Positions 3,301 through 56,825 of a stretch of 64,000 nt of DNA are shown in pieces (within the stretch, counting starts at the first letter, position 1; each line of letters begins with the position of its first letter). Source of the stretch: a bacterium (GTDB lineage: Bacteria > UBA8248); contig CBDATS010000004.1 in NCBI GenBank assembly GCA_965200245.1, positions 96,001 to 160,000 on the forward strand. The letters are read 5' to 3'. The notes beneath the pieces were generated by a model. It did no database searches. It saw only the letters and a list, made by a program, of their open reading frames with translations, and was not told the DNA's origin. Position numbers and translations under genes: made by a program.

Positions 3301-3316
3301 GTCGGTTCCCTCGGTA

Positions 3317-4585: not shown

Positions 4586-4600
4586 GGCGACTCCATTTGC

Positions 4601-6640: not shown

Positions 6641-7529
6641 ATGCTCAACCTGAGACAACTCGAGTATTTCTACCATGTGGCAAAACACGGCGGCTTCACC
6701 CGCGCGGCGAAACGGCTGCCCTTTCCCATCCAGCAACCCGCCCTCAGCATCCGGGTGAAGGCGCTCGAAACGGATCTCGGGGTAAAGCTTTACCGGATCG
6801 TGGTCCGCAAATTTCACCTGACGCCAAGTGGCGAATATCTCTTTGACACTGTCAAACCTTTTTTCGACTCCCTGGAGACCGTCGAACGGCATCTGCGTGG
6901 GGAAACCGCACGGGCGACTCGTCGTGGCCGAGGCAGCACCCATGCTGATCCTGAAGGGTCACAAGGCTGCGTTCCTCAAGTTTCGGGAACGCTACCCGAA
7001 CGTCCGGATATTCGTGCTGGAGAGAAACTGGACGAATCTGCTCGAATACGTCTCGGAAGGCACAGTCGATTTCGCATTCGGCTCGGCACCCGAGACGCGG
7101 GGGAATTTCTCTTTCGAGGAGTGGACAGAGACGGACTATCTCCTGTTGTGTCCCGAGGGACACGCCGTCCTGAAGGAGAAAGAAATCGCACTCGAAAGCA
7201 TCGCGGACCATCCTCTCATCCTGCTCGAACGAGGCACGGCGGACCGACAGCATGTCGAGCACACCTTCGAGAAGGAAGGTTTGTCTATCGATGTCGTCTT
7301 CGAGACTTCCTCCTACAGTCTGATCAACGAAGCCGTGCTGAACAGGGCGGGCATTGCCGTTGTCAACGCGCTCTGGCCCCGGCCCGAGTCCGCAACGAGA
7401 TGTGAAACCGCCAACACATCCCACCTGTTCGGAAAAAAGCGCATTGGCCTGTTCCGGCGAAACGACGTCTACCTCCCCCCCTACACCGGTGATTACCTCG
7501 TCATGCTCAGAGAAACCCTGATGGCGTAA
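6641..7529 (+). pseudogene. LysR family regulator with a +1 frameshift near 6900
   Basis: HTH MLNLRQLEYF..QPALSIRVKALE in one frame; substrate-binding domain GRLVVAEAAP..VDFAF in the next frame; switch at CGTGGGGAAACC. Confidence 0.8.
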
Positions 7530-7587
7530 CAATTGCACCCCGCACTGTGCTTTTGACGCTCCCTGCCCCATTTGTCATCATACGCGC

Positions 7588-8937: not shown

Positions 8938-8989
8938 ACAAACCTGCCGGTTTCAAAAAGATCCAAGGATGAAACGCCGGGAAACCACC

Positions 8990-9952
8990 CTACTCCAGGT
9001 TCAGATGCGGCAGTACTTCTTCCGTGAAACGATCGAGCTGGCCCATCTGATCACGGTGTGTGAAGCGCAGGGAAATGTGCTCGACTCCCGCATCGATGAA
9101 GGAGTTGATGCGCTCTATGAGGTCTCCTGCGGGACCGTAGGTGCCCCATTTTTCGATGGAATCGCCCCAGAAGGGAGTGTAGTAGTAATCGAGCAGGAAC
9201 GCCTCACCGTTTTTCATGGCCGATTCCTTGTTATCGTCGATGCAGGTCGTCATGTACCATGCGGGTGTTCCCGGATCGCGTCCGTTTTCCTCGGCGAGGC
9301 GGAAAATCTTTTTCCAGGTATTGCGGAATTCCTCGGGCGTTACACGGTTGGGGAACCACCCGTCCCCGTACTTCGCCACCCTTTGCCAAGCGGTGTCCAC
9401 CACGGCAGAAGCTATCCACATGGGTACGGTTTTCTGAATGGGCCTATGTGCAAGCGTCACATTCTCGATCTGGTAATACCGACCCTGATAAGTCACGTTC
9501 TCCTCTGTCCAGAGTCTCCGCATGAGCGTCATGTGCTCCTGCATGTAGAACATGCGCTTTCGGAAAGGCACACCCAGGGTCTCGAACTCATGGACGCATT
9601 CTTGGGGTTTCGGTGGACCGATGCCGACGCCGAGAATCACGCGGCCACCCGAGATGACGTCGAGCGTCGCCACCTGATAGGCAAGAAATACGGGATCTCT
9701 GAGACAGGGTAGGAAAACGGCGGTGCCCAGCTTTACGCGCTCGGTTCTCACGGCCACGGCGGACAGCACGCTGAGCGCTTCGAGCCTCGGCTTGGCGAGC
9801 ACCGAATCGCCTACGAACACCGAATCGTAGCCGAGTTCCTCTGCGCGCGTGGCCAAGTCGATTATGGGGCTGATGTCCGGGACGCCGGCGTTCCAGAGCA
9901 GTACGCCACGCGTGGGGAGAAGGACACCGAGTTTTACCCTTCGCTCGCTCAT
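8990..9952 (-). CDS. LLM class oxidoreductase
   Basis: GYDSVFVGDS, TERVKLGTAV, LDVISGGRVILGVG. Confidence 0.9.
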   Translation of the reverse strand: MSERRVKLGVLLPTRGVLLWNAGVPDISPIIDLATRAEELGYDSVFVGDSVLAKPRLEALSVLSAVAVRTERVKLGTAVFLPCLRDPVFLAYQVATLDVISGGRVILGVGIGPPKPQECVHEFETLGVPFRKRMFYMQEHMTLMRRLWTEENVTYQGRYYQIENVTLAHRPIQKTVPMWIASAVVDTAWQRVAKYGDGWFPNRVTPEEFRNTWKKIFRLAEENGRDPGTPAWYMTTCIDDNKESAMKNGEAFLLDYYYTPFWGDSIEKWGTYGPAGDLIERINSFIDAGVEHISLRFTHRDQMGQLDRFTEEVLPHLNLE

Positions 9953-11343
9953 CCTGACATCTGGAGGCGGATGCCCGCGCTCTCGAGAATGCCGCGTACG
10001 CGCGCGCGTTGGGCATCGGTAATGTAGAGCCGCTCCGCGAAATCGCGGCCTGCGGGCTTGGTGGCGTCGATGCCGACTTTCGTGAGGGTATGATCCACGG
10101 GATCCGAGGTCGGGTCCAATATGGCGCCCATCGCCGCGTGGATAAAGTTGATGTCCTTGTCTGCGCGCGTTCGGGTGATGACCGCCCAGGCGACGTCGGA
10201 GAGATTGAAGATATCCACGTCTTCATCCACCACGACCACACACTTGCAGTAAAACTCCGTGCCCAGTGCCGCCATGATGGCCTGCTGGGGCTGGCCCTCG
10301 GCCGTTTTTTTCATCTGAACGATGGCCAACAGCGCGCCAGCCGTGTTCGATGGGACGTGTACGGCGGATACGCCCGGCAGGTTGCGTCTGAGCGTGTTGA
10401 GAATCTCCGCTTCACGGCTCACGCAGGAGATGAGAATGTGATCCGCCGACATGCCCGAGGCCACGCTGTGCAGCATGGCGTCTGCGCGCATCTGTACGCG
10501 CTTGACGACAAACACGTTCTGCGTGCTGCGGTAGGACGCATAGCCAGTGAACTCGCTGAAGGGTCCCTCCTCCTCGCGGACATCGTTCAGAATCTCTCCT
10601 TCCAGCACGATCTCCGCCCCCTCGGGCGCTTCCAAACCCGCCGTGCCGCATCTGGCTACGCGATAGGATTCTCCGAACAAGGCGCCGATGATCTCGTATT
10701 TCCGCACTCCCGGCGGGTAGTGATAGGCCATCGAACCCATGTAGTGCACCGGATGGATGCCGATGACGACCGCCGCAGGCAGAGGTTCGCCTGCGTCCTC
10801 GGCCTTCTTGTGGAAATGGTACATGCGCCGTCTCGAGTGCAGGGAGAGACCGAGCCTGTTCCTGCCCTTGAGTTGCAGGCGGTGGAAACCGGTCGTGTCA
10901 ACACCTGTTTCCAGGTCTCGCGCCACGATCTGGCCCGCCGTGATGTATGGAGCCGCATCCACGGGGAAATGGAACGGGATGGGCAGCTTGTAAAGATCCA
11001 CCTCGTCTTCTTCGAGCACGACTTCGCGCCAGGGAGCGTCCTCCACCACCTCCACGGACTGGTAATTCTGGCAGCGATCCTTGTACGCCGTCGGCAAATC
11101 GCCCGGCTCCACGTCGAGACAAGCCGCGAGGAGCGTCCGGTTGGCCGCAACGTTGGTGACGACCGAACCCTCGAAACCCTCCACGCGTTCGAAAACGATG
11201 ACGGGGTATCTGCCCGCGCGCTCGAACTCGAACACCGTGGGCGTTATGTCCTCCCTGCCGACGGGCTCCTTGATGCGCACCAACTCTTCAGGGTGGTTTC
11301 GCTCCACCATTGCCAGGAAACCCCGCAGGCTTTGGTCCACCAT
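9949..11343 (-). CDS. UbiD family decarboxylase
   Basis: DAAPYITAG, GFHRLQ, EGPFSEFTGY, VVVDEDVDI, KVGIDATKP. Confidence 0.92.
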   Translation of the reverse strand: MVDQSLRGFLAMVERNHPEELVRIKEPVGREDITPTVFEFERAGRYPVIVFERVEGFEGSVVTNVAANRTLLAACLDVEPGDLPTAYKDRCQNYQSVEVVEDAPWREVVLEEDEVDLYKLPIPFHFPVDAAPYITAGQIVARDLETGVDTTGFHRLQLKGRNRLGLSLHSRRRMYHFHKKAEDAGEPLPAAVVIGIHPVHYMGSMAYHYPPGVRKYEIIGALFGESYRVARCGTAGLEAPEGAEIVLEGEILNDVREEEGPFSEFTGYASYRSTQNVFVVKRVQMRADAMLHSVASGMSADHILISCVSREAEILNTLRRNLPGVSAVHVPSNTAGALLAIVQMKKTAEGQPQQAIMAALGTEFYCKCVVVVDEDVDIFNLSDVAWAVITRTRADKDINFIHAAMGAILDPTSDPVDHTLTKVGIDATKPAGRDFAERLYITDAQRARVRGILESAGIRLQMSG

Positions 11344-11354
11344 CTCGGGCGCCT

Positions 11355-12146
11355 TTACCTGGCCCAGGAGCCGCGATCCGTATAGGGATTGTCAAGAGGC
11401 GGCAAGGGGGGAGCACCGTCGCGGGGCGGCTCCTCGTCCCAGAATTCGATGGCGATAACGCGTGCGGGTGCACCCTCGGTGTCCTTGAGCTTCACCGCGC
11501 CCGTGACGAGCAGGACACGTTCTTTCTGGATGGCGCCCATGTTCGTGCACCACTCGATAAGGCATATTCCACGCTCCAGGAACTTGATATGGTTGGGACT
11601 CCAGTTCGGAGCGGGCCACTTGCGTTCCTCGGGCGGATAGAGCGGGGAGTCGCACGTCATGAAATCCTGGACGAGTGCCTTGATCCCTTTGTCGATGAGC
11701 CAATCGGCCGCGTCGGTTGAGAGATAGACCATGTGCTCCCAGAAATCGCGAGAACCCCACATGCGGTCAGTCCATTCCGTGCTGACGATGGCGATATCGC
11801 CGGGGCGCACCTCCACGCCCGTGGCTTCCAGATCCTCGGCCGTAACGGATTCGGAGTTGCCCTTGCCCGGCACCTTGATCACGCAGGCGTCGCCGCATAC
11901 GTGATCGAGGGGTAACTCGTCGTTCTTCAGCCCGTCGTGGAAAAAATGGTAGGGCGCGTCATAGTGCGTGTAGCTCTGCGTGGTCGTGGTGAAGCCGAAG
12001 TTGCAAATATGGTCCACATCCAGCGTCGCGATGGGGGTGATGGTCGTGCCCGGAGCCGGCTTGTCATAAATCTCGTCTCGCGGAAACTGAACGTAGGTGT
12101 CCTCCGGATCGACGGTAAGTGTGAGATCGACGAAGCGGTACGGCAT
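11355..12146 (-). CDS. Cyclase family (kynurenine formamidase-like) metal hydrolase
   Basis: THYDAPYHF, GAPARVIA; RBS before ATG at 12146. Confidence 0.85.
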   Translation of the reverse strand: MPYRFVDLTLTVDPEDTYVQFPRDEIYDKPAPGTTITPIATLDVDHICNFGFTTTTQSYTHYDAPYHFFHDGLKNDELPLDHVCGDACVIKVPGKGNSESVTAEDLEATGVEVRPGDIAIVSTEWTDRMWGSRDFWEHMVYLSTDAADWLIDKGIKALVQDFMTCDSPLYPPEERKWPAPNWSPNHIKFLERGICLIEWCTNMGAIQKERVLLVTGAVKLKDTEGAPARVIAIEFWDEEPPRDGAPPLPPLDNPYTDRGSWAR

Positions 12147-12306
12147 GACTTTTCCCCTGTCGGAGCAAACGGAATTTGAAATGGAAGCTCCCGCCACACA
12201 TCCCCGGATGAGCGGCGGGAGTTGAACCCTGGTTCACAAAGCGATATCTGTTCTCGCAACGTGCCTTTTCAGGCAAGGGAGCACATCCCCCGCCGATTGA
12301 GGAAAA

Positions 12307-13284
12307 CTAATTCCAGCCCTTCTCCTTGCAGTAGCGGGCCGCGCCGTCATGAAACGGTACGCCCACCTGCGCTTGCTTACAACCGGTTTTCGCCGGGTCG
12401 AAGTTCCTTAGACCCTTATGCCCCGCGCGCAAGTCCTTCACGTTGTCCAGCAGGGCTTTCACAATATTGTACGCCGCCTTGTTACTCAGGGCAGTGGAGG
12501 CGATGACCGCGGTAGTGAAGCCGAACGTGTCCTTGGGTTTCGCCTGTCCCGGAAAGGTCTTGGCCGGCAAGCTGGCTTTCAGGAAGCCGATGCCCAGGAG
12601 CTTGTCCCGGAATTTATCGGCGACGCCCAGGAATTTCAGTTTTTTCTGAACCGCAATCGAGGTGAGCGCCGGATGACCCGCGTTCACGGTGTGGCTCAGC
12701 ATATCGGCCTGGCCGTCCTTCATCCGGCTCTTGATGGCCCCGAAGCCGGTGTGCGTGACCGAACCGCCCATCTTCTTGATGGCATCATAGGTAATACCGT
12801 GCGCTTCGAGCATCGCACGTGTGGCCCACTGACCCAGTCCGCCACGCGGAACTGTGACGTAGTTCACAGGCACTTTCTTCAGGTCGAGAATGTCGTTCAC
12901 CTTGGGGTTCGTGGTGACAATCCCAAGGTAGTACTGGTCAAGGCCACCGATCAGCCCGCGCAGGTTGTTGTAGGGTTTCTTGTAGGCCACCTTGCCCTGA
13001 TACGCCCAGGACGCTGCCACACTGAAGGTGAGTCCCATGTTGAATTTGCCGGTGCCGACCAGCTTGGGGTTGCCCACGCCGCCACCTTTGGAGAGGGCGT
13101 CGATCTGAACGCCCACTTTCGCGTTGTTCACGATGTTCGCCATGGTAGCCGAGTAGACGTGCCAGCCGCTGCCTTTTTTCCAGCTGCCCATGGTGAGGCG
13201 GTCCGCCGCCTCGGCCTGAACGGCCACGAATGAGCCGATGGTCATCGCAAGAACGACAACCATTTTCCAAGGTGTACGCTTCAT
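12307..13284 (-). CDS. TAXI family TRAP solute-binding protein
   Basis: Signal peptide, GGGVGNPKLV, VPFHDGAARY. Confidence 0.88.
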   Translation of the reverse strand: MKRTPWKMVVVLAMTIGSFVAVQAEAADRLTMGSWKKGSGWHVYSATMANIVNNAKVGVQIDALSKGGGVGNPKLVGTGKFNMGLTFSVAASWAYQGKVAYKKPYNNLRGLIGGLDQYYLGIVTTNPKVNDILDLKKVPVNYVTVPRGGLGQWATRAMLEAHGITYDAIKKMGGSVTHTGFGAIKSRMKDGQADMLSHTVNAGHPALTSIAVQKKLKFLGVADKFRDKLLGIGFLKASLPAKTFPGQAKPKDTFGFTTAVIASTALSNKAAYNIVKALLDNVKDLRAGHKGLRNFDPAKTGCKQAQVGVPFHDGAARYCKEKGWN

Positions 13285-13342
13285 GCTGAAATCTCCTCTG
13301 TTGGAAATACCACGAATAGTTTCGCCTGTATTGCGTTATCCA

Positions 13343-15214
13343 CTATGAAGTCGGATCCACCAGACCCATGTCTAACGCGCCTTTCTTCGCACGCACCAGA
13401 TGCCGCCAGAAAACAATGACCAGCAATACAGAGCCGATGACGTCCGTCAGTTTCTCGGGAACGATCAGCCCCAGACAACAGATGAAGAAGACCACCCGCT
13501 CCCAACCCGCCAGGGGAATCGATATATGCCCGGTAATCGCCGCCGCCAGGGCTGCTACCCCGATAATGCAGGTGATCGACACCCAGAGCGTCTCGCCGAG
13601 CGAGCCGATGAACAGCATGGATGGATTATATACGAACGCGAAGGGAATAAGAAATCCCGCCAAAGAGAGTTGAAACGCCTTCCAGCCCGTGGCGGTCAGA
13701 TCCGATTCGGCCACGCCCGAGGCGACATAGGCCGAGAGTGCCACCGGCGGCGTCAGCATCGAGAGTATGGCGAAATAGTAGATGAACATGTGCGCCGCCA
13801 GAACGGGGAGGCCCAGCTTGAAGAGTGCAGGCCCCAGAAGCGTGCCGGCCATGATATAGGCGGCGGCTGTGGGCATTCCCATGCCCATGATGACGCAGCC
13901 GATGAGCGTGAGGCCCAATGCAGGCAGAATCATGCCGCCCGAGATATTGACGATGAGGCCCGAGAATTTGAGGCCGATTCCCGTATCGTCCACCACGCCG
14001 ACCACGACACCTGCGATAGCGCAGGGAATAGCGACGGGGACCGTCATACGACCGGCCTTCTCGAGCGCTTCGATTATCTTTTCAAACCCCATACGGGTCG
14101 ACTTCCGCACCCAACTGAGCACCACTACGCCGATGGCCGCCGAGGTGGCCGACCACATGAGCGTAAAGCCCGCGACCATGTAGCCCAAGAGCAGGATGAT
14201 CGGAAAGAGCAGGAGGCCGCGCTCCAGGAGGATGCTCTTGAGTTTGGGCATCTCGTCTTTGCTCAATCCCTTCAAGTCCAGCTTCTTCGCTTCCAGATCC
14301 ACCATAAAGAACAGCGAGACGTAGTAGATGATGGCCGGAATGGCCGCCGCACCCGCTACCCTCAAGTAAGGTGTGCCCGTCATGTCCGCCAGGATGAAGG
14401 CCCCCGCCCCCATGATGGGAGGCATGAGTTGCCCGCCTGTGGAAGCTACCGCTTCCACCGCGCCCGCGTAATGAGGGGCGAAGCCCAGGCGCTTCATCAG
14501 CGGGATGGTGAAGATGCCGGTTCCCACGACGTTCGCTGTCGCGCTTCCGCTGATGGTTCCCATAAGGCTGCTGCTCACGATTGCCGCCTTGGCCGGACCT
14601 CCTCTGAACGAACCGGTGAGCCGGATGGCCAGATCGATGAACATGCGCCCGCCGCCCGAGACCTCGAGCGCCGCCGAGAAGAGCACGAAATAGAACACCA
14701 CCTCGACGCTCACGCCCAGCGGAACGCCGAGAAGGCCCTCGACACCCAGGATTTGAAACTCGATAAACTCGGTCAACAGGATGAAGCGGTGCCCCAAGGC
14801 ACCCGGTATCAGGTGACCCAGAAAATTATAGACCAGCGCCACGACGGCGACCGAGGTAACGCCCCAGCCGAGATAACGCCTCGAGGCCTCGACGGTCAGG
14901 AGGATGTAGGCGAGACCCAGATAGATATAGCGCGGGGGCACCTCGTCCACGTCTCGGATACGTTCGTTCAGGAAATCCCATTCCCACAGGTAGAGCAGCG
15001 CGATGCACATGGCGAGGACGGTCAGGACGTAATCGACCACGCCGACGCGGCCTTCCTTGCGAAACGGCTTTGTTAAAAAAACGATACCAAGCGCGAAACT
15101 CAGGTGGAGGGGTCTGGAAGTAAAGACGTGAAGCATCCCGAAAAAAGCCCAGTAAAGCTGGATAACGGACCAGACAATGGCCAACAGAGCGACCGGGCTC
15201 AGGAAACGTTTCAT
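13343..15214 (-). CDS. TRAP transporter fused 4TM/12TM permease
   Basis: RGGPAKAAIVSS, GSATANV, STGGQLMPPIMGAGAF, GMGMPT, TPPVAL. Confidence 0.92.
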   Translation of the reverse strand: MKRFLSPVALLAIVWSVIQLYWAFFGMLHVFTSRPLHLSFALGIVFLTKPFRKEGRVGVVDYVLTVLAMCIALLYLWEWDFLNERIRDVDEVPPRYIYLGLAYILLTVEASRRYLGWGVTSVAVVALVYNFLGHLIPGALGHRFILLTEFIEFQILGVEGLLGVPLGVSVEVVFYFVLFSAALEVSGGGRMFIDLAIRLTGSFRGGPAKAAIVSSSLMGTISGSATANVVGTGIFTIPLMKRLGFAPHYAGAVEAVASTGGQLMPPIMGAGAFILADMTGTPYLRVAGAAAIPAIIYYVSLFFMVDLEAKKLDLKGLSKDEMPKLKSILLERGLLLFPIILLLGYMVAGFTLMWSATSAAIGVVVLSWVRKSTRMGFEKIIEALEKAGRMTVPVAIPCAIAGVVVGVVDDTGIGLKFSGLIVNISGGMILPALGLTLIGCVIMGMGMPTAAAYIMAGTLLGPALFKLGLPVLAAHMFIYYFAILSMLTPPVALSAYVASGVAESDLTATGWKAFQLSLAGFLIPFAFVYNPSMLFIGSLGETLWVSITCIIGVAALAAAITGHISIPLAGWERVVFFICCLGLIVPEKLTDVIGSVLLVIVFWRHLVRAKKGALDMGLVDPTS

Positions 15215-15365
15215 GGAGTTCCTGCCCTCAATTAAGACCGTTTTCACGGTCATGCGTCAGACGTTCGAGGAAGCGTCTCACATGATAATGACGAGCGCAT
15301 TGCAAGCGCACAGAATCCATACTTGTTTCGCGGGCGAATTCATCCCCCTCCATGCGGCACCCGAC

Positions 15366-16550
15366 TCACTCCGCCCACGGGCGCGTGGTCGTCGTCGTGA
15401 GGAGTTCGCATCCATCGTCCGTCACGAGCACCATCTGTTCGATGTTCGTTCCCCCCAACTCGGGCAGCACGAACTGTGGCTCCACGCAAAGCACCATGTT
15501 GCGCTCGAGCACCATCTCGTTATCGGGCCGGATGATGGGCGCCTCCACGGTTTCGAGACCGATGCCGTGCCCCGCCATGGGGAAGAGAAACTGTCCCGCC
15601 CCGTTCGCGTTGGCATCCAGAAACCGGCTCGCGGCCGCGTGAATTTCGGAAGCTCTTGCGCCCGCTCGAACCGCGCCCATCGACGTTTCTGAAGTCGCGA
15701 TGGTCAACTCGAGCATCTCCTCTACGCCCCTTTCAAGCTTCCTGCCCGGAACCACGGAGGTTCGGTTGACGTCGAACCCGTAGCCCTCCACAGCACCCAC
15801 GTAATCGAAGCGAATCAAGTCGCCCGCCTCCAGTTTTCTTTGCGTCGCCTGCGGCCAGCGCGAGCCCCAACTCGACCACGGACCACTGTGAACACGGACG
15901 TAACGCACGAAATCTGCACCTGCGCGCATGCCCGCCGCGTGACCTTCAGCGCACAAGTCGCTCTCCCGTACGCCGGGGCGGACCGCGTCGAACATGGCGG
16001 CGTAGCCCGCTTCTACGATTTCCGCCGCGCGCTTCAAATAAGCGACCTCGGTCTCGCTTTTTCTCGCGCGGAGTTGTTCCACCAGGGCGTTCGCGTTCGA
16101 GAATAGTGCATCGGGGAGTGCGGAGATCAGGTCGATATACATCGTGGCCGGCATGATGTCCTCACCGGCAACGCCCACCCGGGCGCGCTCCGCTCCCAGA
16201 CGCTTGAGTTGGTTCACCATGCCAGCGGAGATATTCGCCTCAACCTGCACCTTTTGGACGTGCACCATCTCGCGGCGATAGTTGCGATGATCCACGAAGA
16301 GGAGAGGCTCTTCTTCAATCGGCAAGACGAGCACCCCATGGCCCATTCCCCGGACCGTCTTGCTGAACGCGCCCGGAGGAAACGGCGGAAAATGGTTCGT
16401 GAGATAGGTCAGGCTCCCCATGCGATCATAAAAGGAACGCCCGATGACGAGGAGCACATCAAGTCCCGCCTCGCGCATGAGGCCACGCGCGTCCGAAATC
16501 CTCTGGCCAACTTCCTCCCGGGAAGCGCCCGTTCCGTTCTCCAGGACCAT
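15366..16550 (-). CDS. M24 (Xaa-Pro peptidase-like) metallohydrolase
   Basis: RARKSETE, D..GYGFDVNRT, GHGIGL, VEP, IEQMVLVT. Confidence 0.88.
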   Translation of the reverse strand: MVLENGTGASREEVGQRISDARGLMREAGLDVLLVIGRSFYDRMGSLTYLTNHFPPFPPGAFSKTVRGMGHGVLVLPIEEEPLLFVDHRNYRREMVHVQKVQVEANISAGMVNQLKRLGAERARVGVAGEDIMPATMYIDLISALPDALFSNANALVEQLRARKSETEVAYLKRAAEIVEAGYAAMFDAVRPGVRESDLCAEGHAAGMRAGADFVRYVRVHSGPWSSWGSRWPQATQRKLEAGDLIRFDYVGAVEGYGFDVNRTSVVPGRKLERGVEEMLELTIATSETSMGAVRAGARASEIHAAASRFLDANANGAGQFLFPMAGHGIGLETVEAPIIRPDNEMVLERNMVLCVEPQFVLPELGGTNIEQMVLVTDDGCELLTTTTTRPWAE

Positions 16551-17519
16551 CTACCTGAACCTCGGCAAGAGTTCCGAGACAAAATTCTCAAGCTGCTCTT
16601 CCTGGCTGCCGCCTGCGAAGCGAACGACAAAGACACGCGCTCCTTGCGCCGCGTATTCTCTTAGTTCCTCCTCCACGCGGTCCCCATCCCCGGCGACGAC
16701 GAGGAGTTGTTTTCGCACCTCATCGAAGGTCTTGTGGTAGTATTTCGAGAGAAATTCCCCGCATTGCGCCTCGGCCTTCGCACCGTCGGGATTGATGTTC
16801 ATCGTGACGTATAGACACTGGGGAATGCTCTTCACCTGCTCGGTCCTGCCGAATTCTTCGGCATAAGTTAGAATCTTCTCCCAGCACTGGCGGTAGAGAT
16901 CCGCCGTGATGGAGTTCGTAATCCAGCCGTCTGCGAAGCGCGCCACACGCCTCAACCCTGAATCCACCAGATTGCTCGAGAGCCAGACAGGCGGGCCACC
17001 GGTGGTTTTGGGCCTCGGTTCGAGCGTCACGCCCTCGAATGAGAAATGCTTGCCTGCATAATCCGCACGGGACTCGCGCAGGAGGAGTTTGAGTATCTCC
17101 ATGGTCTCGGAAAAACGGCGGGCGCGCTCGTTCAACGGCACGCCGATGGTCTCGAACTCGAACTTCAGGTCCGTACGACCTACACCCAGACCGGGGAGGA
17201 CGCGCCCGGGGAACATGCAATCGAGAGTGCTTATCGACTGGGCGAGCATAACCGGATGCCGGAGCACAGCCAGCATGACCGCCGTGCCCACTTGTACGCG
17301 CTCGGTGGAGGCGAGAACCGCCGCCCACGTCGTGAAACTCTCCATGCGCGGCTTGGCCAGCACGCTGTCGCCGAGCCACACGGAGTCGAGGCCCAGATGC
17401 TCAGCTTTTTTCGCCAAAGTAAATATGGGGTCGGTGTCCGGTACTTCGCCCGCCGCCGCCACGACGACGCCGCGCGTGGGCAGCAAATAGCCGAAATGAA
17501 AGTTTCCCGCCTTGCTCAT
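16551..17519 (-). CDS. LLM class oxidoreductase
   Basis: LLPTRG, DSVWLGDSVLAKPR; paralogous to 8990..9952. Confidence 0.9.
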   Translation of the reverse strand: MSKAGNFHFGYLLPTRGVVVAAAGEVPDTDPIFTLAKKAEHLGLDSVWLGDSVLAKPRMESFTTWAAVLASTERVQVGTAVMLAVLRHPVMLAQSISTLDCMFPGRVLPGLGVGRTDLKFEFETIGVPLNERARRFSETMEILKLLLRESRADYAGKHFSFEGVTLEPRPKTTGGPPVWLSSNLVDSGLRRVARFADGWITNSITADLYRQCWEKILTYAEEFGRTEQVKSIPQCLYVTMNINPDGAKAEAQCGEFLSKYYHKTFDEVRKQLLVVAGDGDRVEEELREYAAQGARVFVVRFAGGSQEEQLENFVSELLPRFR

Positions 17520-18668
17520 GGATTCAAACCCTGCCTCCTGCTCAAAAGAAAGATGTCCTCATTGAGAGGCGAACAAAATGTCAATTTGAGCACATTAGTA
17601 ACACTTTTAGAGTCCCCCCGCAAAACGCAGGCATATGAGGGGCCAATCACCAAGATTCATCTCATCTGGCGAAGCCATCACTGCGCAATGCGTCGCAATT
17701 CTCGGACGCAAGGGCAAGTTCCGGCAACGCGTCCTCTATCATCATTTCGTTCTTGATTCGCTGGTGTCCTGCTTTGCCGGGATTGCAATCCTCGGCAAGA
17801 CATCACTCGTAGCCCGCGAAACAGAACCCCGGATATATAAGGCGCGGAATATCCCGCAGAAGGAAACGATGTTCCAGGCCTGTCGCAACCGATTGGTGAT
17901 CCTGCCTCCCACAGTGTGCCTGCTTCATTTGGCGAGTTGTTTCATATAAGGAATTTGATTGCCTCTCCTTTGACACAAACAAGAGTACGGATATATGTAA
18001 TCAGACTTTGCAGGAGGTGAGGATAGGGAAAAACTTGAGAAAGTGTTTGTCAACTTTCGGTTATAATTCCCTTTCGAAGGGAAGCAACCTAAAATACCGC
18101 CGATGGCCGATCCTTATACCGGAAAGGCCATGCAAGCGTCGCTGTTTCAAGAAAAAACCCGACCAATGTCCGCCCGCCAACTATAGTCTCTCAAGCACCT
18201 TTGCAAGTGCAACATTTGAATTCTTCAGACCCTCCGTATTCTCGGCCATCGTTTCCATGGTTCGGTGGAGAGCCTTTCACAACATCCACAATAAACCTGG
18301 CAAGTTGGGAAAATAATGCCATGGAAATTGCATAATCCGCAATGTTCGGTTTTGCTCTTGTATTTTCAAACTGACCCACTACCTTGTCTTTTGGTTTGTG
18401 GTTTTTTGCGGATCCACGTGATTGCTACTTGGCGAGCGCACCACTAGAAGAGCACAGGAGTCAACTCTGCGAACCCGACAACCCTGTTCAGGCAATAGAT
18501 GTGCACCTGTCTGTTCGCAATAATGAAATAAAAAACGAGAAAAACGTCAACAAATTTCTTGCCTTTTCATCGGAATATCCCATATCCTGCTCATGACAGC
18601 GATGCAAAAAAAAACGAAAGCATCGCGGGTATCAACCCATACTCATTTCCTGAGGACAGGAGACCGAC

Positions 18669-18926
18669 ATGAAATCCATTACCGAGATGCGCAATCACCT
18701 GCTCGAGAAGGCGGAGGTCAGCGAGGAGTTCCGCGCCCGCCTGATCTCTGACCCGAAGGCCGTGATATCCGAGGAGACCGGAATCACTCTTCCGGATGAC
18801 TGCAACCTCCATGTCGTGTCGGATGACGCGGAAAACGGCTATCTGGTGCTTCCGCCTTCGCCCCGGCTCACCGAGGAACAGCTGGCGTCCGTCCAGGGCG
18901 GATATTACAATAGGATATTTGACTAG
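18669..18926 (+). CDS. NHLP (nitrile hydratase-like leader) RiPP precursor, predicted core YYNRIFD
   Basis: EEFRARLISDPKAVI, YLVLPP, LTEEQLASVQGG double-glycine site; RBS CAGGAG upstream. Confidence 0.85.
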   Translation: MKSITEMRNHLLEKAEVSEEFRARLISDPKAVISEETGITLPDDCNLHVVSDDAENGYLVLPPSPRLTEEQLASVQGGYYNRIFD

Positions 18927-19018
18927 AATGATACACCCGGCAACGCAAAAACCGGGGAATCAGGATATCAGGTCTTGCGGGATTTCAGTATGTGATTCCC
19001 CAAAATTCGGCAGGGGAC

Positions 19019-19444
19019 TCAGTCGAAATCGTGTTGATGGTGTTGCTGTTCGTGCCACACTTTGCCGAGGGCGTGAATAACGTCCTCGGCAGTGATGATC
19101 CCCAGAAGTTCCGTTGGGTCCTCCCTGCTCACGACGGGCAGTCGTGATATGCTCCTGTCGCCCAGCTTCGCCATTACCGAATCAAGCGACTGATCCAGAT
19201 GGGCGTGCATGATGTATTTCTTCTTCGCAATCTCGCTCAAGGGCCTGTGCAGAATGCCTGCAGCCTGCGCCTGGCTGAAGTCGTAGTTGCTGGCCATTCC
19301 GGAAAGTCTCCCGTTCGCGTTCAGGACGGGATAGCCGGAAATGGTGCTTCCCCTCGTTCTTTCTATCGCCTCTTGTATCGTGATGTCCTCATCCGGTGCG
19401 TCGAACATCAGTTCGGACACTACATTCGTATTGAGAATCACCAC
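19019..19444 (-). pseudogene. Chimera of a VapC/FitB PIN N-terminus (~18 aa) and a CBS-domain pair
   Basis: VILNTNVVSELM..PD followed by SGYPVL..G.LSG and ISRLPVVSREDPTELLGIITAEDV. Confidence 0.65.
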
Positions 19445-19448
19445 CGAT

Positions 19449-19694
19449 TCAATCGAAGCGGGGCGGCTCACGCATTGCCTCTCGCGACGGGAACTCCAGT
19501 TCAACACCACTGAAGGGCTTGAACAGTTCGTTGATCGCCGTGCCCAGGTCCTTCACCGGCACGTCCACCCCTCCGACGGCCTCGCGCAGAATCAGACGCG
19601 CTTCCTCTTCCATGGAGCGACCGTTCTCGGCCGCTCGTATGCGCAACCGGGTCTTCACGTCATCGTCCAGATTGCGGATCGTGATGTTTGCCAT
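19449..19694 (-). CDS. FitA-like ribbon-helix-helix antitoxin
   Basis: MANITIRNLDDDVKTRLRIRAAENGRSMEEEARLIL. Confidence 0.88.
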   Translation of the reverse strand: MANITIRNLDDDVKTRLRIRAAENGRSMEEEARLILREAVGGVDVPVKDLGTAINELFKPFSGVELEFPSREAMREPPRFD

Positions 19695-20089
19695 CGATGT
19701 CCACTCCATTTTTGCTTCATGATGCAATCATATTATCGACTTTACAAAACTACACGATACTCCGATGTGGCCCCCTGGCGCGAACCACATCTTTGAGTCA
19801 CCGACGGCCGGGCAGAGTGCGAATCATTATAACGAAATAACGGGTCAGCCTGAGCGGCATCCCCTAAGCTCACCGTGCGCGGTTTGAAGAACATTCTTAT
19901 ACACAAGTCACGAATTGAAACGTTCTTCTCGACGGGCCCACTCCTGGAAATGATGCCTGTCCCCAAAATATCTCTCACGCCCTCGACCATGGGCCTGCAG
20001 CTTTTGGTGAACATCTTGCGTGAGGTCCCATGGCTGCGACAATGATGATTTCCTGCATGGGAGGACATACCGCTGGCCCGGTGCGTGGG

Positions 20090-20257
20090 AGCGGTTACTG
20101 GGCGACCCTACCGGTCGCAGAGAGCATAGTCGATCCGAGTACATCGAGTAGCGGGTGTTCGAACAGGACCCCCCGAACCGTCGCTCAGGTTCCAGTCCGC
20201 ATCCTGGAGCAGTTTATCGATACCGGTACACGCAAATGCTTCGGTCGTACTTCTCAT
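20090..20257 (-). pseudogene. N-terminal remnant of a type I restriction enzyme R subunit
   Basis: TEAF..IDKLLQDADWNLSDG..TRIDYALCDR with an RBS; frame broken. Confidence 0.5.
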
Positions 20258-20892
20258 GTGTCCTCTCATGAGCGGAGACCTCGACGCCGAGGACATTGAG
20301 CGTCGCGCACACACGAATCTTCACGTCGTCATGGTTGCAGGTCTTGATGTCTGTCATGACCACGCTTCCAATCACCGGGAAACCCAATCTACGCGGTGCT
20401 TGCGGCGCCATCAATATCCAGCAAACGAACGTGCCTGACGAAGTTGGTCACCACAACGACTTGATCACACCGACGGTCGCCAGCGGAATACGTTCGGGCG
20501 AACAGTGACCATCAATACAGAATACAGTTGATTCAATTCCGGCGAAATTTTCCGGGCCAGGCTGAAAGTCGTCCAGATACCGGGATTTCGGTCCTTATTC
20601 GCGTTCAGAATGGCGTCGCCCACCCGTAGGAGAACATCGGATACAGAAACCTCATCAGATGCGTCGGGGACGCCGTCGTCTGTCAGGAGTTTCACGAACA
20701 GGAGAATATACGCTTAACCAGCCAAGGTCCGTTTCTGCCTTGTTTTTGCAAACTTGAATCGGGCTTCTTTACAGCAGAGAAGATCGCGCGGATAACCTGC
20801 TCCGGTGATGTGTTGAATCTTCGGAAGTCGACCTCGAGAGCGAACAGGAGTTGATCTCTGCTTGTCCGGCATGATGTTTCCAGGCGACAGCT

Positions 20893-21294
20893 TTAATTGC
20901 TCAAAATATAGAAGTCATCATACATGGTTATATGAAACGCAGATATAAAGTCCATGCCGAGAAGAACATCGTGATTGCCCGGCTCATACGGGAGCAGGCC
21001 AGCCTCTGAATCCTTGCCGCGCAAAACCAAATGCCTGCCTGGCTCCCCGCCAGGCAAAGCGAGATTGCTCTCCATTGGAATATCAATCCTCACTCCATGT
21101 TTCTCCGTCTCTACGGGGCTTCCCGTTACTGGAGTGATCCGCATGTGACCAATAGCATTCAACCCCGCAGATTTTACAACCTTTTTGGAAAGAACCAGAT
21201 CGACCGACTGCGCCATGGGTATTTCTTCGATGGCGGCAGCAAGGCGGGCCTGTTCGGTCAGGATGAGATGGCTACCGAACAGTGCGATGGCCAT
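20893..21294 (-). pseudogene. Retropepsin-like aspartyl protease C-terminal remnant joined to an unrelated fragment
   Basis: Ends DVLLGMDFI; catalytic DTG motif absent. Confidence 0.45.
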
Positions 21295-21662
21295 ATCTGA
21301 AGTTCAGGTGTCGTTCTCGTGGCTTCAGAGCCGAACAACACGGTACGATCCACTCGACGTGAAAGCGATGGAAGCGATCCTTGCCGATTTCGAGAGATGC
21401 GTATTGTGGCCAATGTGAAGCATAGAAGCATAATGAATGCTTGGCCCTCGTTCTGCCCCGTGAGCATGGGTTTCGGTCCATGATGCTGCCTGCCTTGAGC
21501 GGTCGAGACCACCGGGCAGGGACACCCTTGCGGATGAAGTTCATTATACTCAAGGGAGGGTTCGTCGCGGTGCGATTGCCTTGGCGGGACAGGCAGTGTC
21601 TTCCGAGAGATTGGCTTGCTTCCGTAGCGGGGAGGTGCCTTGTCCATGCAGCCCTGCTGCCG

Positions 21663-51587: not shown

Positions 51588-51928
51588 ACTCCCTCCCGGT
51601 AAATCATTGAACACGCTGGAGGGCACGTGAAATTCGTAAAATTTTAACGCCCATGTCCTGCATCAAAGAGAATGCCTTAAAGCATAAACATAACAAAAAT
51701 AAGGAAAAAATCAGAAGATGCCGGAAATGTATATCCTATGAAATGCAGATAGTTGCCATGAGCTGCGCGGTCAGTCACATAAGTGGCGGAATGCCGGATT
51801 TATTCTATGTCTTTCTGTAAATTTCCGGAAATTTCTCCGCAAGCGTCGGTTACCCACAGGAAAGCACAACATTTGGGGATAACGTGTGGGTAAACGCATA
51901 TATTTTGTGCATATCCATTTTTTTAGCA

Positions 51929-51996
51929 TTGACATACAAAAGGAAACATACTACACTTAGTGTTATCATCAGATTTGGATATACCAGATATTCCAT
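51929..51996 (+). promoter_or_regulatory. nrdJ sigma70 promoter with NrdR boxes
   Basis: TTGACA-17nt-TACACT; ATACTACACTTAGTGT (51948-51963) and ATACCAGATATTCCAT (51981-51996) resemble NrdR boxes. Confidence 0.7.
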
Positions 51997-52030
51997 TGTA
52001 ACGGGACGCCCTTGGCGGAGGAAATTGGGA

Positions 52031-55000
52031 GTGGAGTTTACGAGGCGTTTCACCCGGGCCGGAGATGATGCGTACGGCGACATTCGTTTCGTGCCGCGTA
52101 CTTCGCGCATCACGAACCCCGACGGCTCGGTCGTCTTCGAAGCAAAGGACATCATGGCGCCTGAGAACTGGTCCCAAGTGGCCGTCGATATATTGGCACA
52201 GAAATATTTCCGAAAAGCCGGTGTCCCCGCCCAATTGAAAAAGGTTCCCGAAGACGGGGTGCCCGAATGGCTCCAGCGCTCGGAACCCGACGAAGGAAAG
52301 CTTGGATCCCTGCCCGAGGAGAATCGATTCGGCAGCGAGCGGGACGCCCGGGACGTATTCCACCGCCTGGCCGGATGCTGGACGTACTGGGGGTGGAATC
52401 ACGGCTATTTCAACGCCGAAGAAGACGCCAGGGCTTTTTACGAAGAGCTTTTATACATTCTCGCGAACCAGATGGCGGCTCCCAACTCGCCGCAGTGGTT
52501 CAACACGGGCCTCCACTGGGCCTACGGCATTACACGTCCCGCCCAGGGCCATTTCTACTGCGACCCAAAAACCGGGGAAATGCTCCGCTCCACCAATGCC
52601 TATGAACGTCCCCAGCCACACGCGTGCTTCATCCAAGCGGTGAAAGACGATCTCGTCAACGAGGGCGGGATCATGGATTTATGGACGCGGGAGGCGCGCA
52701 TCTTCAAGTACGGATCGGGAACCGGCACGAATTTTTCTAGCTTGAGAGCGGAAGGGGAATCGCTTTCGGGAGGCGGAAACAGTTCCGGTCTCATGAGTTT
52801 CCTCAAGATCGGGGACCGCGCCGCTGGCGCGATCAAGTCAGGCGGCACGACGCGACGTGCGGCGAAAATGGTCACGCTCGATATCGATCACCCCGACATC
52901 CAGGAATTCATCAACTGGAAGGTGCATGAGGAACAAAAAGTAGCCGCCCTAGTATCAGGCAGCAAGATGTGCAACCGGCACATGAACGCCATTCTCGGTG
53001 CCTGCCTGGAGGGCAAGAATCTGGGCTTGAACGGCAATCTGCACCTGCCGGACAAGAATCCATCGCTCGCCAAAGCGGTACGCGCCGCCAGACTTGCCGG
53101 CGTTCCGGACAATTATATTCATCGCACCCTTCAGCTGGCGCGCCAGGGCATCACCGAGATCGAATTCGAGGAATTCGACACGAATTGGGAAAGCGAAGCC
53201 TACGCCTCGGTGTCCGGACAAAATTCGAACAATTCGATACGTATATCAGATGGATTCATGAAAGCCATCGGAAAAAATACGGACTGGAAACTGATTCGGC
53301 GCACCGATGGCGAAATCGCCGACTCCGTCAATTCGAAAGAACTTTGGGATCAGGTTGGATACGCGGCCTGGTGCTGCGCAGATCCTGGCCTTCAGTTCGA
53401 TACAACCATCAATGACTGGCACACTTGCGCCGCTGACGGGCGCATCAACGGCTCCAATCCCTGCTCGGAATACATGTTCCTGGATGACACCGCATGCAAT
53501 CTTGCATCTATGAATCTCATGAAATTTTTGGACACAAAAAAGAATCATTTCCAGATTGAAGACTATAGGCACGTCATTCGCTTATTGACGGTTGTCCTCG
53601 AGATTTCGGTGCTTATGGCGCAATTCCCCAGCGTGGAAATAGCCAAACGTTCATACGAGTACCGAACCTTGGGGCTCGGATACGCCAACTTGGGCACCTT
53701 GTTGATGGTTCTCGGCATCCCTTACGATTCGCCGGAAGCGGAAGCATGGTGTGGCGCTCTCACTTCCATCATGACGGGTTGCTCATACGCCGCCAGTGCC
53801 GAGATGGCCGGCGAACTAGGCACTTTTGAAAGATACCCGGACAATCAAGAACACATGTTGCGAGTATTGAGAAACCACCGTCGCGCAGCTTATTCAGTGC
53901 CTGAAGCCGAATATGAAATGCTCTCGAAATCACCAAAAGGAGTATCTGCTGAATTCTGCCCTCAGTATCTTCTCCAGGCAGCGTGTGCTGCGTGGGACGA
54001 CGCCTTGGCTATCGGCTATCGGAACGGCTACCGGAATGCGCAAGCTACCGTCATCGCACCAACGGGCACCATAGGTTTGGTGATGGATTGCGACACAACG
54101 GGAATCGAGCCTGATTTTGCTTTGGTGAAATTCAAAAAACTGGCCGGAGGCGGCTATTTCAAAATCATCAACCAGTCCGTTCCTGTTGCCTTGAGGTGCC
54201 TGGGATATAACGACGAAGAGATCCGTGAAATCGTTGCCTATTGCCGGGGGCGGGGTACACTCACGAATGCACCTCATATCAATCCAGAATCTCTGTATGC
54301 AAAAGGGTTCACCAGCAAGGCTCTTGAAAAAGTGGAAGCTGCACTGGAAGGAGCATTTGAAATCCAGTTCGCCTTCAACAAACACTCCCTCGGTGAAGAC
54401 TTCTGCCGTGAGCAATTGGGGCTCACTGAAACGCGATTGGCAGACTGGGATTTGAACCTGCTCGAAGCCATTGGTTTCTCTCAAGAGCAGATCGCTGAAG
54501 CGAATGATTTCGTTTGCGGAAAAATGACAATCGAGGGCGCACCCCATCTAAAAGAAGAGCACCTGGCCGTCTTCGACTGCGCAAGCAAATGCGGGCGTGA
54601 AGGCAAGCGTTTCATCACCCCTATGGCGCATGTTCAGATGATGGCGGCAGCGCAGCCTTTCATATCAGGTGCTATAAGCAAAACCATCAACATGCCTGCG
54701 GAATCGACAATTCAGGACATCCTGGACATCTATCATGAATCATGGCGACGGATGACAAAGGCAATCGCGATTTACCGCGATAGTTCAAAACTAAGCCAAC
54801 CACTTTCCACGCAAAGCGAGGCGGAACTCTTCAACGATATCGGCGAAGAAAAAACAATTTCGCAAAGCACTCCGGTGCATGTAGCCCAGCGGATTGTGCG
54901 CCGGATTATTTATCAATCCGAAAGACGCAAGTTGCCTACCCGCCGCGGTGGATACACGCAAAAAGCCGTTATCGGCGGGCACAAGGTGTATCTTAGAACC

Positions 55001-55630
55001 GGCGAATACGAGGATGGTTCTATCGGCGAAATTTTCATAGATATGCACAAGGAAGGCGCCGCCTTCAGAAGCCTTATGAACTGTTTCGCTATCGCGATAT
55101 CCCTGGGGCTCCAACACGGCGTCCCTCTGGACGAATTCGTAGATGCTTTCGTCTTCACGCGCTTCGAGCCAGGGGGCATGGTCTCGGGCAACCCCCACAT
55201 CAAGATGAGCACATCCATTATCGACTATATCTTCCGCGAGTTGGCGGTTTCATATCTTGATCGACATGATCTTGCCCAAGTCGTGTCTGAGGACCTCAGA
55301 AGCGATACCATTGGACGCCCGCAACGAGAAATCCCTGAATTCGATGCTGAGGAAGAGGAAACCGAGGAAGAGATTCAAACCATAACCTTGGGGTCGGACA
55401 CGATCGCACCGCGTAGTGATCGAGTAAATTTGGATTACAAGAAAGGACCTACCCACGCTCCTGTGGTGTCAAGAACAGGAGCAGGTTCCGCTCTTGATTC
55501 GCGTATCGAAGAAGCCCGCGCCAAAGGTTATGAGGGTGAAGCATGTGGCGATTGTGGTTTATTCACCTTGGTAAGAAACGGTACGTGTCTGAAATGTATG
55601 ACATGCGGCGCGACCAGCGGATGTTCTTGA
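52031..55630 (+). CDS. nrdJ: Class II (B12-dependent) ribonucleotide reductase with TSCPD domain
   Basis: [43 protein letters not shown]-terminal CxxC pairs; GTG start. Confidence 0.95.
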
Positions 55631-55637
55631 AATAAAC

Positions 55638-55929
55638 CCGTCGTGGGGGAAACGGGCGGACTCTGCGACGGAACGAGAGTCGGGGGAGAATCCTCGGAGG
55701 ATTATTCCCCCGACTCTCACCGAAATAGTATTCAGTGAATCTTCTTGCTGCGGGGAAAACGGGCGGACTCTGCGGCAAGAACGGGAGCCGAGGATAATAT
55801 ACTTCGGGAGTTGAATCCTCGGCTCCCACTTCATATCAAAAGGTAATCCCTGCTACGGGGGAAACGGGCGGACCCTGTGGCAGGTCGAGAGCCGATGAAG
55901 TTTCCTAGGGGGAGTCTTCATCGGCTCTC
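55638..55929 (+). ncRNA. Tandem array of three two-hairpin structured elements of unknown family
   Basis: Units 55638-55718, 55742-55827, 55849-55929; loop RAAACGGGCGGA; covarying 11-14 bp and 13-bp stems. Confidence 0.7.
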
Positions 55930-55939
55930 CCTTCTTCGC

Positions 55940-55968
55940 TTGACACTTGAAGCGGCTTCGCCTACTTT
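55940..55968 (+). promoter_or_regulatory. Sigma70 promoter of tRNA-Ala(CGC)
   Basis: TTGACA-17nt-TACTTT, 14 nt upstream of the tRNA. Confidence 0.65.
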
Positions 55969-55982
55969 CAAATTCCTTTTGT

Positions 55983-56058
55983 GGGGGTGTAGCTCAGATG
56001 GGAGAGCGCGTGGATCGCACCCACGAGGTCAGGGGTTCGAATCCCCTCACCTCCACCA
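55983..56058 (+). tRNA. tRNA-Ala(CGC)
   Basis: Cloverleaf, G3:U70, anticodon arm CGTGG-ATCGCAC-CCACG, encoded CCA. Confidence 0.95.
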
Positions 56059-56757
56059 GAATTTCAGTTTTGGGTTGATATTTCAGCTACTTGCAAGTCA
56101 TGCAGACAGGTCCTGGTTCATGGGTGCGTTAAAATGGTGCGTTGCCTGTGCATTCGGGATCTTCCTGTGTGGCAGGGAATCGCTTGGGCTTCTGCATTTT
56201 CCAGTGCTGTATTCCCGGACACCTGAGGAAGGCCAACCCTTCCCTAGGCCGGTCTTTCCGGAAATCCCTGCACACCCGCAACAGGAGGAAGGCGCTGCGG
56301 CATGCCAAGGTGCTTTCAGTCATGATGGACGAACTGGCGAAACAGTATTTTCATGACGCTGCACCCTGTGCAAGGGCACTGAAACTCCTTCAGGAGTACA
56401 GGTCCGCGGAGAACCTGTATCCGACGTGGAAGCAGTTTGAAGAACATTTCCTGATGGATCTCGATGACCGTGAGATGAATTTGCTGAAGCGAATCATTGC
56501 CCACAGGGAAGCAATGGCGATGACCCGGCCATCTTCCCGTCCGGTTCCGGACATGGCAAAACTGGAAACCCGTTTGCAGGAACTCCTGCAGGAACAGACC
56601 AGGCACATGTCACTGGAAAATCAAGCGATTCCTTGTCACACAGGAAGATCCCGAATGCACAGGCAACGCACCATTTTAACGCACCCATGAACCAGGACCT
56701 GTCTGCATGACTTGCAAGTAGCTGAAATATCAACCCAAAACTGAAATTCTGGTGGAG
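56051..56757. repeat. ~150-bp inverted repeat (56051-56206 and 56611-56757)
   Basis: About 120 bp identical by eye, then 2 mismatches and a 9-bp indel. Confidence 0.92.
56142..56610 (+). mobile_element. N-terminal remnant of a DUF6538-type tyrosine integrase
   Basis: IFQCCIPGHL..FRKSLHTRNRRKAL..A; adjacent to a tRNA 3' end; no catalytic domain. Confidence 0.55.
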
Positions 56758-56825
56758 CTGAGGGGGATCGAACCCCTGACCTCATGACTGCCAGTCATGC
56801 GCTCTCCCAGCTGAGCTACAGCCCC
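56750..56825 (-). tRNA. tRNA-Ala(GGC)
   Basis: GGGGCTGTAGCTCAGCTGGGAGAGCG, anticodon arm CATGA-CTGGCAG-TCATG, CCA end. Confidence 0.95.

Follow-up and report, generated by a model that had tools for sequence, protein, structure and literature searches.

A conserved tandem array of two-hairpin RNA units directly downstream of nrdJ, probably a new regulatory RNA of Nitrospinota

What occupies the interval between nrdJ, the gene for a class II, B12-dependent ribonucleotide reductase, and the alanine transfer RNA (tRNA) gene that follows it, tRNA-Ala(CGC)? The question is raised by a 64,000-nucleotide (nt) stretch of bacterial DNA, positions 96,001 to 160,000 of contig CBDATS010000004.1 (the window), in which an earlier reading of the sequence, here called the original prediction, had described three tandem copies of a two-hairpin, RNA-like motif of no recognized family. 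Our analysis indicates, with confidence close to certainty, that the array is a conserved, structured plus-strand RNA at this address. Strong covariation, an invariant loop and a fixed address on the nrdJ messenger RNA (mRNA), which encodes the enzyme making DNA precursors, make it a well-supported new structured RNA, and it is probably a new regulatory RNA.

A repeat search of the window finds three direct copies of a 32-nt core region with spacings of 107 and 105 nt, in keeping with the predicted period of ~106 nt, and the first unit begins 6 to 7 nt past the nrdJ stop codon (TGA, 55628-55630), where a 7-nt gap had been described. All features of the array lie on the plus strand, and its three units measure ~82 to 86 nt. 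Unit 1 (55637-55718; 93.8 bits with covariance model R2, described below) consists of hairpin 1 at 55637-55672, with its loop at 55649-55660, and hairpin 2 at 55675-55718. Unit 2 (55742-55827; 80.3 bits) has hairpin 1 at 55742-55781, with its loop at 55756-55767, and hairpin 2 at 55783-55827, while unit 3 (55849-55929; 94.8 bits) has hairpin 1 at 55849-55884, with its loop at 55861-55872, and hairpin 2 at 55887-55929. Each hairpin 1 has 11 to 14 pairs around a 12-nt loop, (G/A)AAACGGGCGGA; in unit 1, 55638-55648 pairs with 55661-55671 around GAAACGGGCGGA (55649-55660), and the outermost of the 12 pairs found in relatives is a C-A mismatch in the window. Each hairpin 2 has the perfect 13-base-pair (bp) base drawn in the original prediction, together with a small internal loop and a short apical stem. 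The repeat search returns its 13-nt arms at 100% complementarity in unit 1 (55675-55687/55706-55718) and unit 2 (55783-55795/55815-55827), and 19-nt arms at 89% in unit 3 (55887-55905/55911-55929). Two AU-rich linkers separate the units, linker 1 (55719-55741, 23 nt, unpaired), which begins with ACCG and an A-rich tail, and linker 2 (55828-55848/9, 21 to 22 nt), matching the 21 to 23 nt anticipated. Exact copies of the 12-mer AAACGGGCGGAC number three in the 64-kb window, each inside the array. Allowing up to two mismatches raises the count to 6, fewer than the 8.67 expected, so that only the exact triple stands out. The array is absent from the 17 rows returned by Tandem Repeats Finder, none of which lies near 55.6 kb, because its copies are too diverged.

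Relatives were sought with one exact pattern scan, using the 19-nt core GGGGNAAACGGGCGGACYC, over 185,579 species genomes; such a scan finds genomes that keep the exact core. It returned 34 stretches, 16 with two to three tandem matches and 18 with a single match, where chance alone would give ~35 matches in 1.2e12 positions if base composition is assumed to be even. The 18 single-match loci were rejected as chance, as they have no nrdJ and the covariance model fits only their positions ~13-44, at no more than 21 bits. Locus L012 (contig OY843742.1, 18 kb) is also a chance scan match, belonging to an unrelated ~179-nt satellite that fills nearly the whole contig. Its record is titled as an alphaproteobacterium, and may be misassigned or contaminant DNA.

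The 16 multi-copy stretches, in which matches are ~98 to 122 nt apart (162 nt in two), are of a different kind. An nrdJ orthologue with 72 to 90% amino acid identity lies directly upstream in all 16 (tblastn), ending 7 to 27 nt before the first unit, and tRNA-Ala(CGC) lies directly downstream in these genomes and in the window (17/17; ARAGORN). The window genome is not among the 16, to which its best NrdJ identity is ~89 to 90%. A search of the 17 genomes with the 11-mer AACGGGCGGAC retrieved 45 units, always between nrdJ and tRNA-Ala(CGC), plus one unrelated coding match at window position 32660. A taxon is named in 4 of the 16 record titles, each time Nitrospinota or Nitrospinaceae, and judged from these titles the array is a lineage-restricted structured RNA of Nitrospinota.

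Copy number varies within narrow bounds. Eleven genomes have three units and four have two (L009, L016, L019 and L024), while in L006 and L013 units 1 and 3 flank a remnant of unit 2 that has lost hairpin 1 and whose hairpin 2 carries a new mismatch. These remnants, at ~3224-3302 on the minus strand of L006 and ~799-877 on the plus strand of L013, form a natural deletion series for the array. The same unit is on average 89% identical across genomes, whereas different units within one genome are 71% identical, which points to old paralogues each kept by selection and not to homogenized repeats. The locus with the most distant NrdJ (L007, 72% identity) has three units that do not correspond one-to-one to the three classes; as two of them are closest to unit 1, this array apparently expanded independently. 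The linkers are A/T-rich in all genomes, and their sequence is not conserved.

Is the array under selection for structure, as originally proposed? Folding of a 366-nt region gives -173.4 kcal/mol on the plus strand, with a z-score of -8.11 and none of 100 shuffles as good, and -151.3 kcal/mol on the minus strand. From a plain MAFFT alignment of the 45 units, RNAalifold predicts both hairpins, with 14 of 24 pairs changing on both sides. Covariance model R2 (no flanks, 83 positions, 30 pairs) recovered and re-aligned 45/45 units. The resulting alignment, A5, holds 36 distinct rows. Of its 1079 cells 98.4% form standard pairs, and both partners vary in 20 of the 30 pairs; the observed values were reached by 0 of 500 shuffles on each of five measures, and sliding the partners by one to three columns leaves 45 to 54% of cells paired and 3 to 7 pairs changing on both sides. 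Alignment A5 is fitted to the model and so favors structure, and the unfitted MAFFT/RNAalifold result agrees with it. When only positional orthologues are compared, both partners vary in 9, 12 and 10 of the 30 pairs for units 1, 2 and 3, respectively. Selection on structure is borne out at all three levels.

The strand is marked as well. Counted over the aligned units, G-U cells number 168 and A-C cells only 2, and 98.4% of cells are paired on the plus strand compared with 83.0% on the minus strand. This asymmetry indicates plus-strand RNA, as the original prediction held, and not a DNA palindrome. It bears directly on the view that the units are a selfish or DNA-level repeat, be it a repetitive extragenic palindromic (REP) element or bacterial interspersed mosaic element (BIME), a miniature inverted-repeat transposable element (MITE), or a recombination site beside a tRNA gene. 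The units are indeed palindromic and intergenic, and they do sit beside a tRNA gene, yet so lopsided a ratio of G-U to A-C is unexpected for a DNA palindrome and the units are positional orthologues, not homogenized copies. Dispersed copies, whose presence the original prediction would have counted against itself, were sought as well. The 16 multi-copy stretches lie on 16 different contigs, one locus per contig, including nine contigs of 2.9 to 4.5 Mb titled 'chromosome: 1', counting copies with the exact 19-nt core. Neither the 64-kb window nor the 16 loci of 8 kb contain additional copies by covariance model, phage and plasmid collections hold no match to the motif, and no transposase or integrase family occurs among the window open reading frames (ORFs) with a Pfam match. 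The selfish-repeat reading is already contradicted, and we regard it as next to impossible. Coding sequence was also considered for the units and rejected, as orthologous units (80 to 86 nt) differ by 1 to 2 nt in length and their changes are compensatory.

Beyond pairing, conservation differs along hairpin 1, whose lower stem swaps C-G, U-G and U-A freely. The top of hairpin 1 behaves otherwise. Its four uppermost pairs are G-U, G-C, G-U and G-C in 35 to 36 of the 36 distinct rows, and within the 12-nt loop the core AACGGGCGGA is invariant. The 11-mer core AACGGGCGGAC is essentially invariant, being present in 45/45 units, a count to be read with care, since the 11-mer itself served to retrieve all 45 and the exact scan pattern fits 37 of them. 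The remaining eight units have their changed base elsewhere in the scanned 19-mer, outside the 11-mer. The hairpin-1 loop includes GGA in 45/45 units, in the context GCGGAC. Hairpin 2 is conserved too, in its base (GRGRG/CYCYC), the C that precedes it and its apex (CCU-NGG-RGG). The GGAG tip described for hairpin 2 holds for all three window units and fails beyond the window, since unit 2 of most relatives reads CGGGGGTT.

An alternative that has to accommodate these constraints is that the array works in cis alone, at the 3' end of the mRNA, where its stacked stable hairpins would block 3'-to-5' exonucleases and secure termination before the tRNA promoter, with no role in trans. Its position speaks for this, directly past the stop codon in 17/17 genomes and without a promoter of its own, as do the great stability of the hairpins and the terminator-like last hairpin. 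A barrier or terminator, however, needs only a stable stem, which leaves unexplained the 11-nt loop core of all 45 units, the two G-U pairs that almost never become G-C or A-U while the lower stem changes freely, and the conserved hairpin-2 apex. Moreover, in L006 and L013 the leftover hairpin 2 decays once hairpin 1 is lost. We consider a purely cis-acting module unlikely.

How, then, is the array transcribed? The gene upstream, nrdJ (51884-55630, plus strand), is listed with a GTG start at 51884; the real start is probably the GTG at 52031, judged by its position 8 nt past a Shine-Dalgarno sequence, GGAGGA (52017-52022). The protein matches the Pfam families Ribonuc_red_lgC (3.8e-123), Ribonuc_red_2_N (1.3e-43) and TSCPD (2.7e-10). 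An upstream alignment reveals a conserved promoter-like site, with TTGACA at 51929 and TACACT at 51952, which likewise favors the start at 52031. Around this promoter (window 51760-52033) two conserved palindromic stretches are candidate NrdR boxes. The promoter scan makes no call in the linkers of the window, L033 or L023, and across the genomes no promoter-like site is conserved there.

The absence of linker promoters is relevant to the notion that the units are small RNA genes in their own right, each driven from a separate promoter. Tandem small RNA genes are known, LhrC, Qrr and NsiR1 among them, and in linker 1 of the window a TAGTAT resembles a -10 element. This hexamer is not conserved, though, as relatives read TGGAAT or TCAGGA or lack the segment, and in addition to the missing promoter calls, units 1 and 2 have no U-rich tails. 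Independent genes thus seem very unlikely.

The 3' border of the array is marked by a sigma-70-like tRNA promoter (55940-55968; TTGACA, 17 nt, TACTTT), which follows the tail of the last hairpin, and tRNA-Ala(CGC) itself lies at 55983-56058 (Rfam tRNA, 64.7 bits; also ARAGORN), a conserved neighbor outside the repeat. A regular expression search finds TTGACA-N16-18-TAnnnT between the last unit and the tRNA in 17/17 genomes, with observed spacers of N17/18, and the -10 element ends 13 to 15 nt before tRNA position +1 in all 17. The consensus scan does not call this promoter because its -10 element matches only 3 of 6 positions. Between array and promoter, the last unit is followed by CC and a T-run in 17/17 genomes (4 to 8 T in 12 nt), compared with a mean of 1.4 T after unit 1, and the tail after unit 2 is mixed across genomes. 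Terminator-like sites are called by the terminator scan at the last unit of L033 and L023, and by its sequence features hairpin 2 of unit 3 is likely the intrinsic terminator of nrdJ. The last unit can also form an alternative hairpin abutting the T-run, in which the 3' side of the apex (GGGGGAG) pairs with CUCUCCC (4982-5008 in L033, 4371-4399 in L023, ~55905-55932 in the window); this alternative hairpin is what the terminator scan called.

The tail after unit 1 is of another type, reading ACCA in 14/17 genomes, ACCG in 2/17 (the window included) and CCCA in 1/17, in each case followed by an A-run. Hairpin 2 of unit 1 with its ACCA tail (window 55719-55722, L002-L033) resembles the helix, discriminator and CCA of a tRNA 3' end. 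The likeness may reflect a processing signal, either RNase P-type or CCA-related, or it may be coincidental. A SECIS-like (selenocysteine insertion sequence) read-through element at the nrdJ stop was rejected, the stop codon being TAA in 4/17 genomes.

Taken together, these features suggest a mechanism that we put forward tentatively, rating it as a whole at a little under even: a co-transcribed array in the 3' untranslated region (3'UTR) of nrdJ, terminated by its last hairpin and presenting loops at several sites. Lacking its own promoter, the array would be transcribed together with nrdJ as the 3'UTR of its mRNA, and transcription would end at the last hairpin 2 and the U-rich tail behind it, abutting the tRNA promoter. 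An RNase E-type endonuclease may cut the AU-rich single-stranded linkers, of which linker 1 is a candidate site, and release stable RNAs of ~85 to 105 nt. The analogy is with CcsR1-4, which, as described in PMC8625941, arise by RNase E processing of the ccaF1 mRNA 3'UTR, RNase E cutting mainly AU-rich regions. In the released RNAs, hairpin 2 would shield the 3' end of each unit. The loops are identical, exposed and present in two to three copies, which suggests several binding sites for a single partner. Under the proposed mechanism they would serve as repeated sites for one trans-acting partner, whose availability would thereby be tied to the level of the nrdJ transcript; alternatively, the partner may decide the fate of the nrdJ mRNA. 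The roles suggested in the original prediction, a processed small RNA array or a protein sponge, likewise stand as hypotheses.

What might the partner be? The near-frozen G-U pairs favor a contact that reads shape, whether by a protein, a metal or a tertiary contact. Base pairing with an RNA that carries CCGCCCGU would suit the hairpin as well, its 8-nt core lying in an open loop between two A residues. Pairing of the loop with nrdJ itself was tried and rejected. In the 5'UTR there is only a CGCCC 5-mer, and a likeness in the window (AACGGG...GCGGA) is not conserved; in the coding region the strongest sites reach -14 to -17 kcal/mol but do not coincide at any meaningful position.

Several points weigh against the proposed mechanism. 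Co-transcription, processing and any trans action are steps that we infer. Because the sampled genomes are related, many covarying cells represent inherited changes and not independent events. In the window, the tail of the last hairpin (55930-55939, CCTTCTTCGC) is pyrimidine- and T-rich but holds fewer T than its counterparts in relatives, and no terminator was called there by the scan. A loop target scan of the window gives a best site outside the array of -22.0 kcal/mol, within the null range of -19.3 to -25.3, and neither the nrdJ mRNA nor its 5'UTR has a conserved complementary site. Finally, no RNA-binding protein family is found by Pfam among the 68 window ORFs of at least 70 amino acids, a cut-off above shorter proteins such as CsrA (~60 amino acids).

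One specific RNA target deserves mention. The core ACGGGCGG is exactly complementary to CCGCCCGU at positions 1399-1406 of E. coli 16S ribosomal RNA (rRNA), the E. coli sequence and not that of the host being used; this stretch, at the base of helix 44 in the decoding region, is almost universally conserved. The loop might accordingly be pictured as an antisense element against the ribosomal decoding center, pairing with immature or free 30S subunits. If so, the loop would never change because its target cannot, and two to three copies in the nrdJ 3'UTR would couple the supply of deoxynucleoside triphosphates to translation or ribosome assembly. The complementarity stops at 8 bp, however, and shuffled 13-nt loops reach an 8-nt complement in 16S rRNA in 7.2% of 20,000 trials (19.3% for all rRNA), so the match is not significant alone. 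As a deduction from base complementarity, the ribosome target strikes us as extremely doubtful.

The conserved loop could also be a ligand pocket. On this account the units would be tandem riboswitch-like aptamers, responding to a nucleotide or a cobalamin-related metabolite and influencing mRNA decay or read-through. Conservation of the loop and top helix extends to single nucleotides, the conserved hairpin-2 apex could dock there, and by Pfam this NrdJ has no ATP-cone domain. An alternative pairing is also visible by eye, between the CUCU in the 3' strand of hairpin 1 and an AGAG at the foot of hairpin 2; it would form only 4 bp, at the cost of more than 25 bp. None of the known riboswitch models matches, a 12-nt hairpin loop makes a small pocket, and the array occupies a 3'UTR position, with the next gene under a separate promoter. 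Tandem aptamers are, in our estimate, highly improbable.

Should the loops bind a protein or an RNA, as the multi-site mechanism supposes, ribonucleotide reduction would be linked to another cellular process through a 3'UTR, a regulatory layer that to our knowledge is described in only a few model bacteria. As the motif is short, sharply defined and present in multiple copies, it is a practical bait for finding the partner. Nitrospinota are described as the main nitrite oxidizers of the ocean. Nitrospina nitrite oxidizers are found only in marine environments, according to PMC5029188. Within the full texts searched, the literature held no account of Nitrospinota RNA regulators and nothing on this element; supplements may list such motifs. 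A look-up of terms in PMC5737381 and in two 2026 bioRxiv preprints gave no mention of Nitrospinota or nrdJ.

Other features of the window lie apart from the array. A second alanine tRNA gene, tRNA-Ala(GGC) (56750-56825, minus strand), converges on tRNA-Ala(CGC) from ~700 nt away, and between the two lies a 182-amino-acid ORF (56142-56690) with no Pfam match. A run of short ORFs without Pfam matches occupies 17635-21647; within it an 85-amino-acid ORF (18669-18923) has a nitrile-hydratase-alpha-like match (3.6e-9) and may encode the precursor of a modified peptide, of the leader-peptide type. Nearer the start of the window, 171-2306 and 2347-17519 hold two adjacent paralogues of a pyridoxal phosphate-dependent enzyme, three luciferase-like monooxygenases, two UbiD-family decarboxylases, a tripartite ATP-independent periplasmic (TRAP) transporter and an NMT1-like binding protein, a gene set that from its predicted content looks like a catabolic island.

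To which known systems is the array related? At gathering thresholds, Rfam 15 reports only two tRNAs in the window and 15 matches, all tRNA, in the 16 related loci, so that the motif belongs to no family scored there, in line with the original prediction. When E-values up to 10 are admitted on 55500-56100, no family scores higher on a unit than RNaseP_arch, whose 19.7 bits compare with a gathering score of 84 and whose alignment covers a bare hairpin only. Type III toxin-antitoxin systems of the ToxI type have a short repeat array beside an endoribonuclease toxin gene. Such an antitoxin array was rejected for this locus, the flanks being nrdJ and tRNA-Ala and the next ORFs containing no toxin family by Pfam.

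REPs and BIMEs share with the array stable hairpins clustered directly past a stop codon. REPs, however, occur in tens to hundreds of dispersed copies, often in alternating orientation and linked to REP-associated tyrosine transposases (RAYT), whereas the present motif is confined to a single locus, in direct orientation and with strand asymmetry. The 6C RNA of actinobacteria likewise has two hairpins with conserved loops, but its loops are C-rich and it is a single-copy, stand-alone gene, and the array has no match to any Rfam model. Intrinsic terminators resemble the last unit, whose GC-rich hairpin 2 is followed by CC and a T-run in 17/17 genomes; hairpin 1 and the upstream units, by contrast, lack terminator features, unit 1 being followed by ACCA and an A-run.

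A parallel in design is offered by the CsrB/RsmZ sponges, in which several hairpins present the same GGA-containing motif in a multivalent arrangement. These RNAs carry many A(N)GGA motifs in hairpin loops of 5 to 7 nt. Here the motif is GCGGAC in a 12-nt loop, only two to three sites per transcript are invariant, most copies of unit 2 lack the GGA of the hairpin-2 apex, and the array lies inside an mRNA 3'UTR instead of forming a separate gene. With loop context and size off this consensus, membership in the CsrB/RsmZ family seems unlikely.

The likeness to CcsR/cuckoo RNAs of Rhodobacter and other alphaproteobacteria, noted in the original prediction, goes furthest. CcsR units have two hairpins with C-rich, anti-Shine-Dalgarno-like loops and are linked to a DUF1127 gene. 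The family relation does not hold, for there is no Rfam model match, the loop here is G-rich (AACGGGCGGA) whereas that of CcsR is C-rich, the host gene is nrdJ and not the DUF1127 gene ccaF1, the phylum differs, and in the present units even the top helix, with its two G-U pairs, is invariant. What does hold is the architecture, and in architecture only the array resembles CcsR/cuckoo: tandem two-hairpin units that repeat an identical loop motif in the 3'UTR of an upstream protein gene, without a promoter of their own.

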